Below are positions 24,188-34,405 of a stretch of DNA of 64,000 nucleotides, piece after piece. A program made the translations under genes and the position numbers. The notes below the pieces were generated by a model. The model made no database searches. It was not told the DNA's origin and saw only the letters and a program-made list of their open reading frames with translations. The DNA is from Escherichia phage LH2. The stretch lies in sequence record OQ378934.1. One strand, written 5' to 3'. Position 1 is the stretch's first letter. Every line of letters begins with the position of its first letter.

Positions 24188-24738
24188 TGAAACAATACCA
24201 ATTTTTAATTAAAGATATCCTGGAAAACGGTTATGAAACCGATGACCGAACAGGCACAGGAACAATTGCTTTGTTCGGTACTAAATTACGCTGGGATTTA
24301 ACTAAAGGTTTTCCTGCAGTAACGACTAAGAAGCTTGCCTGGAAAGCTTGCATTGCTGAGCTCCTTTGGTTTTTATCAGGAAGCACAAATGTTAATGATT
24401 TACGATTAATTCAACACGATTCATTAATTCAAGGCAAAACAGTCTGGGATGAAAATTACGAAAATCAAGCAAAAGATTTAGGATATCATAGCGGTGAACT
24501 TGGTCCAATTTATGGAAAACAGTGGCGTGATTTTGGCGGTGTAGACCAAATTGTAGAAGTTGTTGATCGTATTAAAAAACTGCCAAATGATAGACGTCAA
24601 ATTGTTTCAGCATGGAATCCGGCAGAACTCAAGCAGATGGCATTGCCACCTTGTCATATGTTCTATCAGTTTAATGTGCGTAATGGCTATTTGGATTTGC
24701 AGTGGTATCAACGATCAGTAGATGTTTTCTTGGGTTAA
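24187..24738 (+). CDS. td: thymidylate synthase, exon 1
   Basis: MKQYQFLIKDILENGYETDDRTGTGTIALFG… through …QRSVDVFLG, ending at the canonical td intron 5' splice site (exon ends ...TTGGGT); the listed ORF begins 12 nt upstream at a TTG. Confidence 0.95.
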
Positions 24739-25751
24739 TTTAGGCCTGAGTATAAGGTGACTTATACTTGTAATCTATCTAAACGGGGAACCTCTCTAGT
24801 AGACAATCCCGTGCTAAATTGTAGGACTACCCTTTAATAAATACTTCTATATTTAAAGAGGTATTTATGAAAAGTGGAATTTATCAGATTAAAAATACTT
24901 TAAACAATAAAGTATATGTAGGAAGTGCTAAAGATTTTGAAAAGAGATGGAAGAGGCATTTTAAAGACTTAGAAAAAGGATGCCATTCTTCTATAAAACT
25001 TCAAAGGTCTTTTAACAAACACGGTAATGTGTTTGAATGCTCTATTTTGGAAGAAATTCCATATGAGAAAGATTTGATTATTGAACGAGAAAATTTTTGG
25101 ATTAAAGAGCTTAATTCTAAAATTAATGGATACAATATTGCTGATGCAACGTTTGGTGATACATATTCTGTACATCCATTAAAAGAAGAAATTATTAAGA
25201 AACGCTCTGAAACTGTTAAAGTTAAGATGCTTAAGCTTGGCTCTGATGGTCGGAAAGCTCTTTACGGTAAACCCGGAAGCAAAAATGGGCGTTGGAATCC
25301 AGAAACCCATAAGTTTTGTGAATGTGGGGTTCGTATACAAACTTCTGCTTATACTTGTAGTAAATGCAGAAATCGTTCAGGTGAAAATAATTCATTCTTT
25401 AATCATAAGCATTCAGACAAAACTAAATCTAAAATATCAGAAAAAATGAAAGGTAAAAAGCCTAATAATATTAAAAAGATTTCATGTGATGGGATTATTT
25501 TTGAATGTGCAGCTGATGCAGCTAGATATTTTGAAATTTCATCCGGATTAGTTACTTACCGTGTAAAATCTGATAAGTGGAATTGGTTCTACATAAATGC
25601 CTAACGACTATCCCTTTAGGGAGTAGGGTCAAGTGACTCGAAACGATAGACAACTTGCTTTAGCAAGTTGGAGATATAGTCTGCTCTGCATGGTGACATG
25701 CAGCTGGATATAATTCCGGGATAAGATTAACGACCTTATCTGAACATAATG
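24739..25751 (+). mobile_element. td group I self-splicing intron (1013 nt) carrying the I-TevI gene
   Basis: Intron 5' sequence taatttaggcctgagtataaggtgacttatacttgtaatctatctaaacgggg and 3' end ...ctgaacataatG match the T4 td intron; the exon 1 and exon 2 reading frames join across it. Confidence 0.9.
24867..25604 (+). CDS. intron-encoded GIY-YIG homing endonuclease I-TevI
   Basis: 245-aa [38 protein letters not shown]… with GIY-YIG catalytic domain, zinc finger and C-terminal HTH; length and sequence match I-TevI. Confidence 0.95.
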   Translation: MKSGIYQIKNTLNNKVYVGSAKDFEKRWKRHFKDLEKGCHSSIKLQRSFNKHGNVFECSILEEIPYEKDLIIERENFWIKELNSKINGYNIADATFGDTYSVHPLKEEIIKKRSETVKVKMLKLGSDGRKALYGKPGSKNGRWNPETHKFCECGVRIQTSAYTCSKCRNRSGENNSFFNHKHSDKTKSKISEKMKGKKPNNIKKISCDGIIFECAADAARYFEISSGLVTYRVKSDKWNWFYINA

Positions 25752-26074: not shown

Positions 26075-26332
26075 TTGAGAGGATATATGATTTTACGATT
26101 TAAGGATACTTCTGGTGTCGTTCTTTTTACACTTCCTAATCCAAGTGAACTGGAAGTTCCAGGGCCAGAACAGCCTATTATCATTTATGGCAAAAAATAT
26201 TATACTCATAAAATGACTCGTGAGTATTTTGATAATAAAATTTCTACAGTTAAAACTTCTTCTGATTGTTATTATGATATTACTGTTTTAACGGAAAAAC
26301 AATATGACGAATGCAGAACTTTAGCAGTATAA
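26075..26332 (+). CDS. hypothetical protein (85 aa)
   Basis: ORF with gagagga RBS between td and nrdA; its last 12 nt overlap the convergent GIY-YIG gene. Confidence 0.5.
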
Positions 26333-27052
26333 ATATGATTCCCAGCAATCTAGAGCGCATCTTTTAGATATAAGTTTTCTGCTTATTCCGGTTTGACGCA
26401 CAGCTTCTGCTATTGTTGGATATTCTACCCCATCTATACTTACTCTTAGATGGGGTTTCTTTTTACCTCTTTGCGAGTCAGAAATTCGTTTTCTAACTTC
26501 ATTGGTATGTGTCTGTCCATAATATGGGTTATTGATGCCTTTCATATTAAGTGCAGCGTTTCTTTCTTGGAACTTTTTGCTTATTTCTATAGCACGATCT
26601 AACCCATAGTGTTCTTCTATAGTTTTACCTTTGATATCTCTAGGTCTACCATGTTTTTGCTTAAGTTCTTCTGGTGATAATTTTGAATTATTATTTTTAA
26701 TTGCATTTGAAATTTTATTAAGGATTTCTTTCTTTCTTGGGTGATGAGATAAGGTATCCCCAAACGATGCGTCTGCTATATTATACCCATTTTCCTTTGA
26801 GTCATATTCATGCATCCAATAATTTTCACGTTCAATAATGATAGATTTTTCGTATGGAAGTTCTTCTATGATTTTACATACGAAAGCATCTTTCCCATGC
26901 TTATTATAAGAACGCTGCAGCTTTATTGAATGATGATTTCCATTATCTAAATCTTTAAAGTGTCGTTTCCATCGTTCTTCAAAATTAATTGCACTTCCTA
27001 TATAGTGCTTATTGGTTTTAGTGTTTATAATAGCATATATTCCAGATTTCAT
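26321..27052 (-). CDS. free-standing GIY-YIG homing endonuclease (I-TevI-like, seg-type)
   Basis: 243-aa [38 protein letters not shown]… whose N-terminal ~95 aa closely parallel I-TevI; C-terminus has NUMOD3-like ([20 protein letters not shown]) and NUMOD1-like HTH ([24 protein letters not shown]) motifs. Confidence 0.85.
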
Positions 27053-27107: not shown

Positions 27108-29372
27108 ATGCAATTAATTAATGTTATCAAAAGTAGTGGTGTTTCTCAGAGCTTTGATCCACAAAAAATTATTAAAGTTTTATCTTGGGCAGCTGAAGGA
27201 ACATCTGTAGATCCTTATGAATTATATGAAAATATTAAATCATATCTCCGTGATGGAATGACCACTGATGACATTCAAACCATTGTAATTAAGGCTGCTG
27301 CGAATTCTATTTCAGTTGAAGAGCCTGATTATCAATACGTAGCTGCACGCTGTTTAATGTTTGCTCTTCGTAAGCATGTTTACGGGCAATATGAACCACG
27401 TTCATTTATTGACCATATTTCTTACTGCGTAAATGAAGGTAAATACGACCCTGAATTGTTGTCAAAATATTCTGCAGAAGAAATTACATTTTTAGAATCA
27501 AAAATTAAGCACGAGCGGGATATGGAATTTACTTATTCCGGGGCGATGCAATTAAAAGAAAAATATCTCGTTAAAGATAAAACCACTGGTCAAATTTATG
27601 AAACTCCACAGTTTGCATTTATGACTATTGGAATGGCATTGCATCAAGATGAACCTGTTGATAGACTAAAACACGTTATTCGTTTTTATGAAGCAGTATC
27701 TACTCGACAGATTTCATTACCAACTCCTATTATGGCTGGTTGCCGTACTCCAACTCGGCAGTTTAGTTCATGCGTTGTTATCGAGGCGGGTGATTCGCTG
27801 AAGTCTATCAACAAGGCTTCCGCTTCAATTGTTGAATATATCTCCAAACGCGCTGGAATTGGTATTAACGTTGGTATGATTCGTGCTGAAGGTTCTAAGA
27901 TTGGCACAGGTGAAGTACGTCATACTGGTGTTATTCCTTTTTGGAAACATTTTCAGACTGCTGTTAAATCATGCTCACAGGGTGGAATTCGTGGCGGCGC
28001 TGCTACTGCTTATTATCCTATTTGGCATTTGGAAGTTGAAAATCTTCTCGTTTTGAAAAATAACAAAGGTGTAGAAGAAAACCGTATCCGTCATATGGAT
28101 TATGGTGTTCAGCTGAATGACCTAATGATGGAACGATTCGGAAAGAACGATTACATTACTTTGTTTAGTCCGCATGAAATGGGTGGCGAGCTTTATTATT
28201 CTTATTTTAAAGACCAAGACCGTTTCCGCGAATTATACGAAGCAGCAGAAAAAGACCCTAATATTCGCAAAAAGCGTATTAAAGCCCGTGAACTATTTGA
28301 ATTACTCATGACTGAACGATCAGGAACAGCAAGGATTTATGTACAGTTCATTGATAATACGAATAACTATACTCCATTTATTCGTGAAAAGGCACCTATT
28401 CGTCAGAGTAACTTGTGTTGTGAAATTGCTATTCCAACAAATGATGTGAATAGTCCTGATGCTGAAATCGGATTGTGTACCCTTAGCGCATTTGTGTTGG
28501 ATAACTTCGATTGGCAAGACCAAGATAAAATTAATGAATTGGCAGAAGTCCAAGTTCGCGCTCTTGATAATCTTTTGGATTACCAAGGATATCCAGTTCC
28601 TGAAGCAGAAAAAGCTAAAAAGCGTCGAAATCTTGGTGTAGGTGTTACTAACTATGCAGCTTGGCTGGCAAGCAACTTTGCTTCTTATGAAGATGCTAAC
28701 GATTTAACACATGAACTATTTGAGAGACTACAGTATGGACTCATTAAAGCATCCATTAAGCTCGCCAAAGAAAAAGGACCTTGCGAATATTATTCAGACA
28801 CTCGTTGGTCTCGAGGCGAATTACCTATCGACTGGTACAATAAAAAGATTGACCAAATCGCAGCTCCAAAATACGTTTGTGACTGGTCGGCGCTGCGGGA
28901 AGACCTTAAGCTCTTTGGCATCCGTAATAGCACATTATCAGCACTTATGCCATGTGAGTCATCTTCCCAAGTTTCTAACAGTACAAACGGTATCGAGCCT
29001 CCACGTGGACCAGTCTCTGTTAAAGAGTCAAAAGAGGGTTCCTTTAATCAAGTCGTGCCCAATATTGAACATAACATAGACCTCTATGATTATACGTGGA
29101 AATTAGCTAAGAAAGGTAATAAACCTTATCTTACGCAGGTAGCTATTATGCTGAAATGGGTATGTCAATCAGCTTCAGCGAATACATATTATGACCCGCA
29201 GATTTTTCCAAAAGGAAAGGTTCCAATGTCTGTAATGATTGATGACATGCTATACGGATGGTATTATGGCATTAAAAACTTCTATTATCATAATACCCGC
29301 GATGGTTCTGGTACTGATGATTATGAAATAGAAACTCCAAAAGCTGAAGATTGTTCATCCTGTAAATTATGA
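27108..29372 (+). CDS. nrdA: aerobic ribonucleotide reductase large subunit NrdA
   Basis: 754-aa product from the MQLINVIKSSGVSQSFDPQKI start (T4 NrdA is 754 aa); ATP-cone N-terminus and class I RNR motifs. Confidence 0.95.
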   Translation: MQLINVIKSSGVSQSFDPQKIIKVLSWAAEGTSVDPYELYENIKSYLRDGMTTDDIQTIVIKAAANSISVEEPDYQYVAARCLMFALRKHVYGQYEPRSFIDHISYCVNEGKYDPELLSKYSAEEITFLESKIKHERDMEFTYSGAMQLKEKYLVKDKTTGQIYETPQFAFMTIGMALHQDEPVDRLKHVIRFYEAVSTRQISLPTPIMAGCRTPTRQFSSCVVIEAGDSLKSINKASASIVEYISKRAGIGINVGMIRAEGSKIGTGEVRHTGVIPFWKHFQTAVKSCSQGGIRGGAATAYYPIWHLEVENLLVLKNNKGVEENRIRHMDYGVQLNDLMMERFGKNDYITLFSPHEMGGELYYSYFKDQDRFRELYEAAEKDPNIRKKRIKARELFELLMTERSGTARIYVQFIDNTNNYTPFIREKAPIRQSNLCCEIAIPTNDVNSPDAEIGLCTLSAFVLDNFDWQDQDKINELAEVQVRALDNLLDYQGYPVPEAEKAKKRRNLGVGVTNYAAWLASNFASYEDANDLTHELFERLQYGLIKASIKLAKEKGPCEYYSDTRWSRGELPIDWYNKKIDQIAAPKYVCDWSALREDLKLFGIRNSTLSALMPCESSSQVSNSTNGIEPPRGPVSVKESKEGSFNQVVPNIEHNIDLYDYTWKLAKKGNKPYLTQVAIMLKWVCQSASANTYYDPQIFPKGKVPMSVMIDDMLYGWYYGIKNFYYHNTRDGSGTDDYEIETPKAEDCSSCKL

Positions 29373-29388
29373 TATAATTACCACAAGG

Positions 29389-30981
29389 ATGTGGTTAACT
29401 AAGAATAACGCTATGTTTGATAATATATACAAAAACGGAAAGTTTCTTCCATTTGGAGAAGAAAAACTTAAATCTAGACTAACAGAAGAAGATAAAGCTC
29501 TTCTAACTGATGGAATAGATTTTAAGCTCAATGTGTTCCAAATTATGGAAGGCATTGACATTAACGATCTAAAATGTGCAGTTTGTGGAAATTTCATTTC
29601 TCTGAAAACAGCAAAGAAACGTGTATTTCCAGCAACATGTAGTAAATCCTGCGCAGGGATATTTTTCGCGGATAAGAGAATTCAAAGCCGTGATACAAAT
29701 TTTGGCGGAAAAGAAAAATATAAAAAATATTTGTCTGAACTTCAACACAAAAATTCTTTAGAAAAATATGGAACAACTCATCAAAAAATTTCAAGAAATA
29801 AAAATAGAAAAACTTTAATTGAACGATATGGGGTAACGCATAATTCACAATTAGAAAGTGTGAAAGAAGCGAGAAAAGTTATAGAAAACGGTAAATCAGT
29901 TGATATTCTGCATTCTAGAAAATCTCGCGAAAAATCTAAGAAGACTAAATTAAATTGGACTAAAGAATATAAGGCATCGTTATATTCATCTATAGGAAAA
30001 TCTATTAAAAATAACGGTCATATTAATCATGATATACTAGATAAAATCAATTACAAAATTTCTATAGAAGAACTACAACAATTAGCAAATTGTTCTCGGA
30101 TGACGGCTTATAGAGCTCTTTCATCCAAAGGACTAATTGACGTTCATTATACTCAAAGTTCTATAGAGCAGTTCATTTTAGATCTAGGATTTGATTGCGT
30201 AGAAACTAGAAAAATTATTCCTCCGTATGAATTAGATATTTACATTCCTGAGAAAAAATTGGCTATAGAATACGATGGAATTTATTGGCATTCTAGCGGG
30301 TCAAAGGAAACAGATAAAATTAAAGAAACTTATCATTTGATGAAGACAGAGATGTGTGAAGCACAAGGAATTCAATTACTTCACATCTTCGAAAATGAAT
30401 GGATTGATGATACAAAAAGAGAGATCTGGAAATCCATTATAAAGCATAAATTAGGATTATCAGAAAGAATACCAGCCCGAAAATGCAAAGCACGGTTTGT
30501 TAATAAGGATGAGGCAAAAGAATTTATTAATAAGAATCATCTTCAAGGATTTTGCTCAGGAGCTCATACGTATAAAGGACTTTATTACAATAATGAGTTA
30601 GTTCAAATTATTTCTATCGGTAAATCTAGATATAGCTCAGGTGATGAACTTTTAAGGATGTGTTCAAAATTAGGGGTTTGTGTTGTAGGAGGAGCCTCAA
30701 AATTATTAAAAGGAATTAATTGTCTATCTTATGGCAATCGAAGATGGTGCAGTACATTATCAAATGTTTATGACTCTGTCATGGAATTTAGTCATATCTC
30801 TGAGCCATGTTATTGGTACGTCGATAAAGGAGAGGTATTTCACCGCTCAAGCTATATGAAACATAAGCTTAAAAACAAGCTTAAAAATTATGATGATACA
30901 ATAACTGAAGTAGAAAATTGTTATGCAAATGGTCTTAGAAGAATCTGGGACTGTGGAAATTTAGTTTACAGGACAAAATAA
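29389..30981 (+). CDS. putative free-standing homing endonuclease with Vsr-like PD-(D/E)xK nuclease motif (530 aa)
   Basis: Large AT-rich ORF filling the nrdA-nrdB gap; N-terminal Cys cluster (CAVCGNF…CSKSC), internal KYGTTH/RYGVTH repeats, and a central motif ELDIYIPEKKLAIEYDGIYWHS resembling the Vsr/DUF559 FxDGxxWH endonuclease signature. Confidence 0.55.
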   Translation: MWLTKNNAMFDNIYKNGKFLPFGEEKLKSRLTEEDKALLTDGIDFKLNVFQIMEGIDINDLKCAVCGNFISLKTAKKRVFPATCSKSCAGIFFADKRIQSRDTNFGGKEKYKKYLSELQHKNSLEKYGTTHQKISRNKNRKTLIERYGVTHNSQLESVKEARKVIENGKSVDILHSRKSREKSKKTKLNWTKEYKASLYSSIGKSIKNNGHINHDILDKINYKISIEELQQLANCSRMTAYRALSSKGLIDVHYTQSSIEQFILDLGFDCVETRKIIPPYELDIYIPEKKLAIEYDGIYWHSSGSKETDKIKETYHLMKTEMCEAQGIQLLHIFENEWIDDTKREIWKSIIKHKLGLSERIPARKCKARFVNKDEAKEFINKNHLQGFCSGAHTYKGLYYNNELVQIISIGKSRYSSGDELLRMCSKLGVCVVGGASKLLKGINCLSYGNRRWCSTLSNVYDSVMEFSHISEPCYWYVDKGEVFHRSSYMKHKLKNKLKNYDDTITEVENCYANGLRRIWDCGNLVYRTK

Positions 30982-31656
30982 TGAGTACAGTTTTTAATAC
31001 TAAACAGGTCGATGTTTTAAAAGAACCTATGTTTTTTGGTTCAGGTCTTGGTATTGCGCGTTATGATATTCAACGGCATCGAGTATTTGAAGAACTTATT
31101 GAACGTTCGCTCTCGTTTTTCTGGCGTCCGGAAGAAGTAAACTTGATGATGGATGCTGCACAGTTTAATAAGCTTCCTCAGTATCAACAAAATATTTTTA
31201 CTAATAATCTGAAGTATCAATCATTACTTGATAGTATTCAAGGTCGTGCGCCGTCTGCTGTACTTATGCCATTGCTTTCAGACCCAAGCCTTGATACATG
31301 GGTTGCTACATGGACTTTTAGTGAAACTATTCACAGTCGTTCATATACTCATATCATGCGAAATCTTTATACTGATCCGTCAAAGGTATTTGATGAGATT
31401 GTATTAGATGAAGCTATTATGAAACGCGCTGAATCCATTGGGCGTTATTATGATGATGTTCTGATTAAAACCCGTGAATGGGAAAATGCTAAAGAATTTG
31501 TAGAACTAGCTAAAGAATCTCCTGATGCCGACTTTCGTTTAAACCGAGCTATTAAACAAGAAGCCGAAGCTAAACGTGCTTTAATGAAATCTCTTTATCT
31601 CTGTTTGCACGTTATTAATGCCTTAGAAGCTATTCGTTTTTATGTATCTTTTGCGT
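30981..31656 (+). CDS. nrdB: ribonucleotide reductase small subunit NrdB, exon 1
   Basis: MSTVFNTKQVDVLKEPMFFGSGLGIARYD… to …EAIRFYVSFA; the frame is interrupted by a stop that is removed once the intron is excised. Confidence 0.9.
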
Positions 31657-32247
31657 AAAATGCGCCTTTAAACGGTAACGTTTATCGAAAACTCCTTTAA
31701 TTGCTGGAAAGTCCTTTATAGGAAAACTAGCAGCCAAGGTTTTGCTTGCACCTTTAATTAGTATAATATGATTATACTTTTAAGAGGATGCACAATTGAA
31801 CTATAGAAAAATTTGGATAGATGCTAACGGACCTACCTAAAGATTCTGATGGAAGACCATAAGAAAAGAACATCAGCAAAAACATTAGAAATGGTTAAGA
31901 ATGGGACCCATCCTGCACAAAAAGAAATCACATGTGATTTCTGCGGTCACATTGGTAAAGGTCCTGGATTTTATCTAAAACATAATGACAGATGTAAATT
32001 AAATCCAAATAGAATTCAATTGAATTGTCCATATTGTGATAAGAAAGATTTATCACCATCAACATATAAACGATGGCACGGCGACAATTGCAAAACAAGG
32101 TTCAACGACTAGTCTTCGGACGTAGGGTCAAGCGACTCGAAATGGGGAGAATCCCTCCGGGATTGTGATATAGTCTGGACTGCATGGTAACATGCAGCAG
32201 TTCATAAGAGAACGGGTTGAGAATTAGCGAGCTCAATCGAACATACG
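31657..32247 (+). mobile_element. nrdB group I intron (591 nt) with decayed homing endonuclease ORF
   Basis: Exon 1 ends in T and the intron ends in G (…acatacG|gtacc…), restoring codon TGT and the conserved NrdB junction FAC-TFNFH; size is close to the T4 nrdB intron. Confidence 0.8.
31849..32112 (+). pseudogene. I-TevIII-like endonuclease remnant (87-aa zinc-finger C-terminal fragment)
   Basis: Intron-internal ORF with CxxC…CxxC zinc-finger (CDFCGH…CPYCDKKD) but no HNH catalytic domain; consistent with a deleted I-TevIII. Confidence 0.55.
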
Positions 32248-32750
32248 GTACCTTTAACTTCCACAAAAACATGGAAATCATGGAAGGTAATGCCAAGATT
32301 ATGAAGTTCATTGCTCGTGATGAGCAGCTTCACCTTAAAGGCACTCAATATATTATTCGTCAACTTCAATCCGGTACTGATGGCGATGAATGGGTTAAAA
32401 TTGCTCAAGAGTGTGAACAAGAAGCAGTTGATATTTTCATGGAAGTTAACCGCCAAGAAAAAGATTGGGCAGTTCATTTATTTAAAGATGGCGATGTTCC
32501 TGGATTAAATACAAATAGCATGTGGAGCTTTATTGATTACTTAACTGTATCTCGTATGAAACAGTGTGGTCTTCCATGTCCAATTACCGATGCTCCGGTT
32601 AAACATCCATATCCTTGGATTCGTGAATATCTTAATTCTGATAATGTTCAATCCGCGCCACAAGAAGTAGAACTTTCATCTTACCTTGTAGCACAGATTG
32701 ATAATGATGTTGATGATAAAGTTATGATGAGTTTTAAAAAATATTTTTAA
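32248..32750 (+). CDS. nrdB: ribonucleotide reductase small subunit NrdB, exon 2
   Basis: …TFNFHKNMEIMEGNAKIMKFIARDEQLHLKGTQ… in frame with exon 1 after splicing (392 aa total). Confidence 0.9.
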
Positions 32751-32777
32751 GGAGTGGGCCGCAAGGCCCATTTTATT

Positions 32778-34405
<1,628 letters not shown>

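Follow-up and report, generated by a model that had tools for sequence, protein, structure and literature searches.

A degenerate I-TevIII intron in the nrdB gene of a T4-like phage and its linkage to the endonuclease gene hef

Phage T4's nrdB intron, together with its deleted I-TevIII gene, has been textbook material since 1986–1991, and another copy carries little weight as a discovery. Autocatalytic GTP labelling of the T4 intron was shown by Gott et al. 1986 (cited in PMC2790892), and in its defunct endonuclease state it is an RB3-type intron shortened by deletion (Eddy & Gold 1991, cited in PMC1865063 and PMC2790892). The RB3 intron itself (KM606994; Robbins et al. 2007, PMC1865063) still specifies the complete HNH enzyme of 269 aa, has a late promoter, and homes by itself.

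The enzyme encoded by the RB3 intron has been dissected in some detail. I-TevIII carries two CX2CX12-13HX3C zinc fingers, with C211/C214 and C242/C245 as their leading cysteines (PMC1865063). A construct comprising residues 166–269 (166C) binds DNA and constitutes the minimal DNA-binding domain, while a shorter construct (194C, residues 194–269) binds two Zn and dimerises but gives no DNA shift (Robbins et al. 2007, PMC1865063). Expression of the gene is also controlled. In T4, a hairpin keeps read-through transcripts from being translated, and escape is limited to transcripts made from the late promoter (PMC2988022). The figure legend of that paper describes the hairpin of phage U5 as having an 'alternative structure'.

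The T4 nrdB intron does not home by itself, and is mobilised by the neighbouring endonuclease MobE, a process termed 'trans homing' (Wilson & Edgell 2009, PMC2790892). A second homing endonuclease, Hef, is described as replacing mobE and is reported to cut the nrdB of hef-less phages (reviewed in PMC2988022).

The locus described here lies in the genome of Escherichia phage LH2 (OQ378934.1). 'The window' refers to the whole stretch of 64,000 nucleotides that was analysed. Megablast places the region with Tequatrovirus (T4-like) phages, the best match being 98.2% identical. The segment at 31657..32247 is very probably the group I intron found in nrdB of T-even (Tequatrovirus) phages, here with a dead endonuclease. 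This T4-type intron with its defunct I-TevIII is already known (Eddy & Gold 1991, and later work), and near-identical alleles are present in GenBank for phages G8, F26, and FL23.

The intron, its host gene and its ribozyme

A preliminary description of this DNA had nrdB interrupted between YVSFA and TFNFH by a 591-nt element. Both the interruption and its coordinates are confirmed, and the intron (591 nt in the window, 598 nt in T4, and 1091 nt in RB3) divides the gene as follows.

30981..32750, plus strand: nrdB, the whole gene, split by the intron
30981..31656, plus strand: nrdB exon 1, 676 nt, with the 3′ end ...TTTGCGT; U31656 forms the U.G pair of P1
31657..32247, plus strand: nrdB group I (IA2-type) intron, predicted to be self-splicing, 591 nt; recognised from the T4/RB3 alignment, RF00028 matches to its two halves, ORF-less sister alleles, and pair counts
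32248..32750, plus strand: nrdB exon 2, 503 nt including the stop codon, opening with GTACC (GTACCTTTAAC)

The intron begins with AAAATGCG (in longer form, AAAATGCGCC) and ends with ACATACG. It follows the group I end rule, since U31656 of exon 1 pairs with G31662 in P1, and the terminal base of the intron is G32247. P1 has only 4 bp, and P10 is read as having at most 2 bp. When the exons are joined in silico, the T of exon 1 and the GT of exon 2 form TGT, and the Cys codon that splicing had been expected to restore is indeed recovered as Cys226 (exon 1 ending in T, intron in G). The product is an uninterrupted NrdB of 392 aa (...YVSFACTFNFH...), in which the Pfam domain Ribonuc_red_sm spans the junction (residues 33-335, E=1.4e-36).

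In the infected cell, the ribozyme would join U31656 to G32248, giving the normal 392-aa NrdB. From the precedent of T4 and RB3, we infer that the intron is active in splicing. T4 can be grown in the laboratory without nrdB, and because the gene is dispensable there, a viable phage is not in itself proof that splicing takes place.

A search of the whole window with Rfam at the gathering threshold, which is 50 bits for RF00028 (Intron_gpI), gave no match. With permissive filters, the whole intron region scores 35.7 bits (E=2.5e-7), with its 5′ half misplaced. Taken alone, 31640-31800 aligns with positions 1-136 of the model (18.5 bits, E=0.007), and 32080-32197 with positions 112-253 (31 bits, E=1.4e-6). 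Natural ORF-less alleles of the same intron match at full length, with 71.7 bits for phage CJY920 and 69.1 bits for SP21535. The score of the window's intron falls below the gathering level because the ORF, an insertion of ~350 nt in the P6 loop, splits the core. The gathering-level miss is explained by this insertion, and was not counted as an argument against a group I intron. Once the ORF is set aside, the core in the window is identical to that of phage FL18, and it differs from that of SP21535 only at seven T4-type/RB3-type positions of the 3′ half.

The structure was mapped from the Rfam alignment of the ORF-less alleles, and comprises the following elements.

31657..31742, plus strand: ribozyme 5′ half, matched by RF00028
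31653-56/31662-65, plus strand: P1
31669-74/31679-84, plus strand: P2, GUAA loop, two compensatory pairs
31692-97, plus strand: P3, 5′ strand
31702-07/31727-32, plus strand: P4
31712-15/31720-23, plus strand: P5, one compensatory pair
31733-42, plus strand: P6, 5′ strand
32092..32247, plus strand: ribozyme 3′ half, matched by RF00028 and identical to T4 over the stretch
32092-101, plus strand: P6, 3′ strand
32107-11/32171-75, plus strand: P7
32112-14/32119-21, plus strand: P7.1, UUCG loop, IA-type
32125-29/32134-38, plus strand: P7.2, IA-type
32144-49, plus strand: P3, 3′ strand
32151-55/32159-63, plus strand: P8
32180-86/32191-97, plus strand: P9, GUAA loop, with a compensatory change from G-C to A-U between T4-type and RB3-type alleles
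32200-03/32210-13, plus strand: P9.1
32215-21/32232-38, plus strand: P9.2

The RNA folds as a group IA2-type ribozyme. Counted over 11 distinct alleles, the 82 mapped pairs give 900 cells, all of which pair (100%), although this percentage is biased upward because the structure was derived from those same sequences. The compensatory changes are unaffected by that bias. Double changes of this kind occur in five pairs (two in P2 and one each in P5, the ORF hairpin, and P9), and slid controls over the same 11 alleles contained none. The core helices P3-P8 and the P3/P7 pseudoknot pair; P3, P7, and P8 are invariant, and the covariation comes from P2, P5, P9, and the ORF hairpin. Folding all 618 nt of the region by unconstrained minimum free energy (MFE) gives most of the helices (P1, P2, P4, P5, P6, P7.1, P7.2, P9, P9.1, and P9.2), and in this fold P6 closes over the ORF. 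The two ribozyme halves (31657-31742 and 32092-32247) come together through P3, P6, and P7, across an ORF remnant held in the P6 loop.

In automatic annotation, nrdB ends up as two separate CDSs and the intron goes unnoticed, since the Rfam model does not reach its gathering score in the presence of the ORF remnant. Some near-identical alleles in GenBank are annotated as 'defective intron-associated endonuclease'. The minus-strand ORFs that PHANOTATE calls 'hypothetical proteins' within the intron of FL23, ESh36, and other phages were discarded as spurious, being shorter than 70 aa, antisense to both the ribozyme and the known ORF, and unsupported.

The I-TevIII remnant and its deletion

The intron once specified I-TevIII, an enzyme with an HNH nuclease at its N terminus and, at its C terminus, a domain of two zinc fingers for DNA binding and dimerisation. 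What is left of the C-terminal part in the window can be listed briefly.

31849..32112, plus strand: remnant ORF, 87 aa, I-TevIII residues 184-269 plus a Met created at the junction
31852..31859, plus strand: deletion junction GAAGACCA, placed by the T4/RB3 alignment, with a gap of 491 columns
31933..31995, plus strand: zinc finger 1, C29-x2-C32-x12-H45-x3-C49
32026..32091, plus strand: zinc finger 2, C60-x2-C63-x13-H77-x3-C81

The ORF matches positions 184-269 of the 269 positions in PHROG 12324 (full-length I-TevIII, E=6.9e-60) and positions 11-97 of PHROG 27406 (the truncated T4-type form, E=2.2e-61). The 87-aa ORF of the preliminary description is present at 31849..32112 on the plus strand, but its single CxxC...CxxC finger has to be redrawn, as the cysteines belong to two tandem CCHC fingers, which correspond to those of C211/C214 and C242/C245 in RB3 I-TevIII. 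The dimerisation region is retained in the ORF as well. The last ~7 codons of the ORF and its stop overlap the 3′ strand of P6, J6/7, and the 5′ strand of P7.

Pfam detects HNH_3 at residues 4-48 of RB3 I-TevIII. In the 87-aa ORF, no Pfam match to HNH was obtained, as expected of a remnant said to have lost its catalytic domain. An intact HNH domain in another frame had been named beforehand as the observation that would contradict this reading; it was sought in a six-frame translation of the intron, and none was found there.

The remnant had also been likened to the defunct I-TevIII state of T4, and comparison with the RB3 intron and I-TevIII bears this out. The window has the same 491-nt internal deletion relative to RB3 as T4 does, with the same end points, and in its ribozyme parts it matches T4 exactly or almost exactly. 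The missing 491 nt of RB3-type sequence (I-TevIII codons ~22-183) lay between imperfect direct repeats that share the 8-bp form GAAGAnCA, the upstream one being GAAGAACA and the downstream one GAAGACCA. The deletion also shifts the reading frame, because the two repeats stand in different codon phases. The ATG of the 87-aa ORF was created at the junction, from ...GAT joined to G. Only codons 1-21 of the I-TevIII N terminus survive, spread over two frames (NYRKIWIDANGPT and KDSDGRP, each followed by a stop).

At the protein level, the deletion took away the catalytic motif in full, together with a portion of the minimal DNA-binding region, and put the remainder out of frame. The minimal DNA-binding domain (residues 166-269) is incomplete, as the ORF begins at residue 184. 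Judged by its sequence, the 87-aa ORF is a pseudogene fragment and not a functional member of the I-TevIII family.

The junctions of the window and T4 differ by a single base (GAAGACC in the window and GAAGAAC in T4, which has GAAGAACA at the same place). This difference lends itself to another history, in which the same imperfect repeat gave rise to two separate deletions. Crossovers to the left or right of the mismatch would be expected to leave GAAGAACA in some lineages and GAAGACCA in others, and T4 strains do carry the former, while the window and all wild isolates carry the latter. However, one A/C substitution, or short-patch conversion after a single event, explains the same distribution equally well. 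A 6-nt deletion that removes the late promoter (see below) occurs in the undeleted U5 allele too, which favours separate events, whereas the 3′ half of the window is identical to that of T4, and phage Manna combines T4-like 5′ features with the GAAGACC junction. Independent deletion is considered rather unlikely, and the deletion in the window is treated here as the one known from T4.

Hef and the persistence of the intron

The intron is incapable of homing by itself. It had been described in advance as probably immobile unless mobilised in trans, and this agrees with the behaviour of the T4 intron, which is not self-homing and depends on MobE (PMC2790892). A candidate for the same role lies immediately upstream of nrdB.

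29389..30981, plus strand: hef, free-standing homing endonuclease gene, 530 aa, located between nrdA (which ends at 29372) and nrdB; its stop codon overlaps the nrdB start codon

This gene has 99.4% nucleotide identity, over 1593 nt, to the hef gene of phage U5 (AY262133.2, 'Hef homing endonuclease'), and the two proteins differ by four amino acids over 530 aa. Hef matches PHROG 3339 'homing endonuclease' (E=3.4e-151), and has weak Pfam matches to the nuclease folds MTES_1575 and DUF559. By analogy with T4, the likely trans-mobiliser of the intron in the window would be Hef, not MobE. Hef would cut the nrdB of a hef-less phage, and repair of the break would co-convert the linked intron, as happens with MobE in T4. 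The chance that such Hef-driven trans-homing takes place is put at roughly even.

The distribution of related alleles provides the context for this proposal. In the phage collection, the undeleted I-TevIII segment was found in 85 records and the T4-type deletion in 27 (16 of which are T4, T4T, RB55, or RB59), while about 196 records have an uninterrupted nrdB junction. The hef gene occurs in 16 records from 14 phages, and lies directly upstream in nine of the ten non-T4 phages with the same deletion; 215Ecol030PP has the deleted intron, and no endonuclease is encoded between its nrdA and nrdB. The hef+ phages carry the following introns.

U5: intron of 1083 nt, with a frameshift in the ORF after residue 52
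G8, F26, FL23, FL12, Lv5cm, Manna, ESh36, and FL18: intron of 587-599 nt, same 491-nt deletion
FL44: same deletion junction, known from the junction match alone
SG1: intron of 420 nt
CJY920: intron of 309 nt, ORF-less
SP21535: intron of 300 nt, ORF-less
N2: no intron

Across the hef+ genomes, erosion is graded, from a frameshifted allele of 1083 nt, through alleles of ~590 nt and 420 nt, to ORF-less alleles of 300-309 nt, and finally to the absence of the intron. The whole ORF of CJY920 and SP21535 was lost by deletion between ACAATTG repeats, and frameshifts are present in the alleles of p215, ESh36, FL18, and FL12. An intact I-TevIII is found in none of the 13 intron-bearing hef+ genomes of the phage database, and 84 of the 85 records with the undeleted segment are hef-less genomes. 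Among hef+ phages, exon 1 and the intron form mosaics, with T4-type and RB3-type 3′ halves joined to different 5′ halves, which indicates that recombination in this interval is frequent. Beyond the phage collection, exact-pattern scans of IMG/VR found the window-type deletion junction in the G8 genome only and the T4-type junction nowhere, and both types were absent from the metagenome contigs scanned, so these scans added no further independent allele.

Vertical inheritance combined with hitch-hiking on Hef would most likely account for the persistence of this intron. A more general and more tentative proposal is that the degenerate nrdB introns of wild T4-like phages are kept by hitch-hiking on Hef, while I-TevIII, made redundant by the mobility of its neighbour, erodes. 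If true, the hef+ series would show the life cycle of homing endonucleases caught in nature, with endonuclease replacement as its driving force.

The pattern of introns in hef+ phages fits Hef hitch-hiking and linkage by descent equally well. Under the latter, the intron would be a neutral vertical passenger, Hef would have no part in its spread, and their association would reflect the common descent of one haplotype block. The hef gene and the intron are just 676 bp apart, which favours a single block, but the MobE precedent indicates that co-conversion over such a distance occurs (PMC2790892). Near-identical 5′ nrdB sequence is common to hef+ phages, yet the visible mosaicism of exon 1 and intron among the same phages indicates frequent recombination. 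The two elements can also be found apart, since 215Ecol030PP retains the deleted intron without a neighbouring endonuclease gene and N2 is hef+ but intronless; on the other hand, the roughly 196 records with an intronless junction represent potential recipients. A purely passive passenger is rated as rather doubtful. Hitch-hiking on Hef, alongside vertical inheritance, is retained as the working explanation, and the hef-linked series of eroding introns offers ready natural material for studies of trans-homing and endonuclease decay.

Further decay of the remnant and comparison with known systems

Upstream of the remnant ORF, the window preserves two regulatory and coding features of the original I-TevIII gene, both of them altered.

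31751..31787, plus strand: hairpin sequestering the I-TevIII Shine-Dalgarno (SD) sequence (AAGAGG, 31782-87), identified by alignment, fold, and one compensatory pair
31796..31840, plus strand: original I-TevIII start stub, with a TTG start, a strong SD, 14 codons, and TAA

A 6-nt deletion at about 31764/31765 reduces the hairpin loop from 9 nt to 3 nt, and the late-promoter motif TATAAATA, present in this loop in T4 and RB3, is lost with it. The hairpin folds with -14.3 kcal/mol into the same stem as in T4, with the SD still paired, and its compensatory pair runs from A-U via G.U to G-C. The U5 allele, in which the 491-nt segment is undeleted, shares this 6-nt deletion, and the 'alternative structure' reported for U5 is presumably its effect. 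A second lesion, a 2-nt (TA) deletion at about 31834-31836 in the N-terminal stub, causes the native TTG frame to stop after 14 codons and breaks the 97-aa frame of T4. This copy of the intron is more decayed than the T4 copy. Because the late promoter is gone and the SD is locked in the hairpin, the remnant is probably silent. Most likely, then, the 87-aa zinc-finger ORF is a relic that is either not expressed or without function.

There is only a slim chance that the two-finger remnant is instead a retained, expressed small protein, acting as a dominant-negative dimer against co-infecting full-length I-TevIII, or as a residual autorepressor or operator binder. In all 12 of the ~590-nt alleles, even in those with 5′ frameshifts, both fingers lie in an open frame that, counted from an internal Met, is at least 69 aa long, and every frameshifting indel falls within the first ~30 nt of the ORF, which is mildly suggestive of constraint. 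However, the indels lie in A-runs and may be sequencing errors. A selection test on the remnant would be uninformative because the finger region holds only five SNPs (three synonymous and two non-synonymous), mostly common to full-length alleles, a diversity too low to gauge selection. Fragment 194C, which is of like extent, retains the binding of two Zn and dimerisation but does not bind DNA (PMC1865063). Re-initiation is conceivable, as the ATG of the ORF comes 8 nt after the stop of the 14-codon stub, yet no SD precedes either that ATG, at 31849, or Met15, in addition to the loss of the late promoter and the sequestration of the native SD. Furthermore, SG1 lacks one finger, and CJY920 and SP21535 lack the whole ORF, yet these phages are viable, so the module is dispensable. 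A silent relic remains the preferred reading.

It is highly improbable that the intron has lost splicing and that nrdB has thereby become a pseudogene here, for although the window has no RF00028 match at the Rfam gathering score and laboratory T4 does not require nrdB, the ORF insertion accounts for the Rfam miss, both exons are intact and in frame, all ribozyme helices pair, and the core equals that of FL18, with the 3′ half of T4 and the 5′ half of RB3, U5, and SP21535.

Compared with known systems, the locus stands closest to T4 in the anatomy of its deletion. The T4 intron (NC_000866, T4p230/T4p231) shares the host gene, the insertion site (the Cys codon, between T and GT), and the end points of the 491-nt deletion; its ribozyme 3′ half is identical, and its 97-aa ORF contains the 87 aa of the window with one substitution. 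In contrast to T4, the window lacks both the 6 nt carrying TATAAATA and 2 nt in the stub, the latter placing the upstream ATG of T4 out of frame and leaving an ORF of 87 rather than 97 aa. Its P5 loop holds one A more, as in RB3, and its upstream neighbour is hef rather than mobE/nrdB.1. Its NrdB, at 392 aa, is of the RB3 type, while that of T4 has 388 aa.

RB3 carries the same intron, with a 5′ ribozyme half that is identical save for the 6-nt loop deletion. Residues 184-269 of its I-TevIII agree with the ORF in the window at 85 of 86 residues, and its 3′ half differs from that of the window at seven positions, including the compensatory P9 pair. Phages G8, F26, and FL23 (MK373787, OP870145, and PP400787) have the same gene order, nrdA-hef-nrdB(intron)-denA-rnlA, the same deletion junction, and both of the small deletions (6 nt and 2 nt), and their 87-aa ORF is annotated. 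They differ in having an RB3-type 3′ ribozyme half in an intron of 592 nt, whereas the window has a T4-type half in one of 591 nt. The combination of core parts seen in the window is matched exactly by FL18.

The closest functional parallel is that of MobE and the T4 intron. In both cases, the gene directly upstream of nrdB encodes a free-standing endonuclease, and the intron close by is not mobile by itself. The neighbour in the window, however, is Hef, a member of an unrelated endonuclease family, and mobilisation of the intron by Hef at this locus is putative.

Endonuclease genes of the td-nrdA-nrdB region

Besides the nrdB intron, the window carries intron-borne and free-standing endonuclease genes, as follows.

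24736..25751, + strand: group I intron of td (thymidylate synthase), 1016 nt
24867..25604, + strand: I-TevI ORF within the td intron, full-length, 245 aa
26321..27052, - strand: free-standing GIY-YIG endonuclease gene, 243 aa, between td/nrdA.1 and nrdA
29389..30981, + strand: hef, intact, the free-standing homing endonuclease gene of phage U5, between nrdA and nrdB

I-TevI of the td intron has GIY-YIG, I-TevI zinc-finger and I-TevI DNA-binding domains (Pfam). The td intron itself had no Rfam match at gathering score in the window search, probably because of the ORF inside it, as with the nrdB intron. The product of 26321..27052 is paralogous to I-TevI; Pfam assigns it NUMOD3 and I-TevI DNA-binding domains. 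At the matching position, the annotation of phage N2 lists an ‘endonuclease’. Counting this gene, the 9-kb td-nrdA-nrdB stretch contains four endonuclease genes or remnants. Where T4 has mobE/nrdB.1 in the nrdA-nrdB interval, the window has hef instead, and in the phage database, every hef-positive genome that bears the nrdB intron carries a degenerate I-TevIII.

Deletions in the nrdB intron

At the junction of the 491-nt I-TevIII deletion (31852..31859), the window shares the sequence GAAGACCA with all wild isolates; all records of T4 (L002), T4T, RB55 and RB59 have GAAGAACA there. Crossovers at two different points of one imperfect repeat would fit this difference, which would then reflect either independent deletions or later conversion.

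More strongly reduced introns occur in nature. Those of phages SP21535 (L016, 5605..5904; 300 nt) and CJY920 (L015; 309 nt) lack the ORF, while that of SG1 (L014; 420 nt) retains half of it. All three forms are products of deletion between short repeats; in the ORF-less pair, the repeat is ACAATTG. Such natural introns are of use as minimal ribozymes, and they provide evidence for stepwise erosion of I-TevIII.

In phage U5 (L013, AY262133.2), the ‘full-size’ I-TevIII ORF has lost 2 nt after codon ~52, and the late-promoter motif is missing from the intron. Barring sequencing error, this ORF also appears to be a pseudogene.

Among the GenBank relatives (loci L004-L016), automatic annotation has broken nrdB into two CDSs in G8, F26, FL23, Manna, ESh36, FL18, FL12, SG1 and SP21535. 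In several of these nine records, short ‘hypothetical proteins’ in antisense orientation occupy the intron, and the F26 record names the HNH-less I-TevIII remnant ‘HNH endonuclease’.

Sequences flanking the intron

Two further features lie on either side of the intron.

31480..31580: NrdB segment KEFVELAKESPDADFRLNRAIKQEAEAKR, nrdB exon 1, residues ~170-199, RB3 type
32752..32790: GC-rich hairpin followed by a T-run, GGAGTGGGCCGCAAGGCCCATTTTATT, between nrdB and denA

In G8, the hairpin and T-run between nrdB and denA are annotated as a putative terminator. Translation of denA could start at either of two codons: GTG at 32754 yields a protein of 144 aa (T4 annotation), ATG at 32778 one of 136 aa (RB3).

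The T4 counterpart of the NrdB segment, DMVEYYKDQGLILADKDVEQRAKRD, is unrelated to that of the window and four residues shorter, and ESh36 has a further, different version of the segment. The segment is therefore a hypervariable cassette, placed between the region targeted by the endonuclease and the intron.
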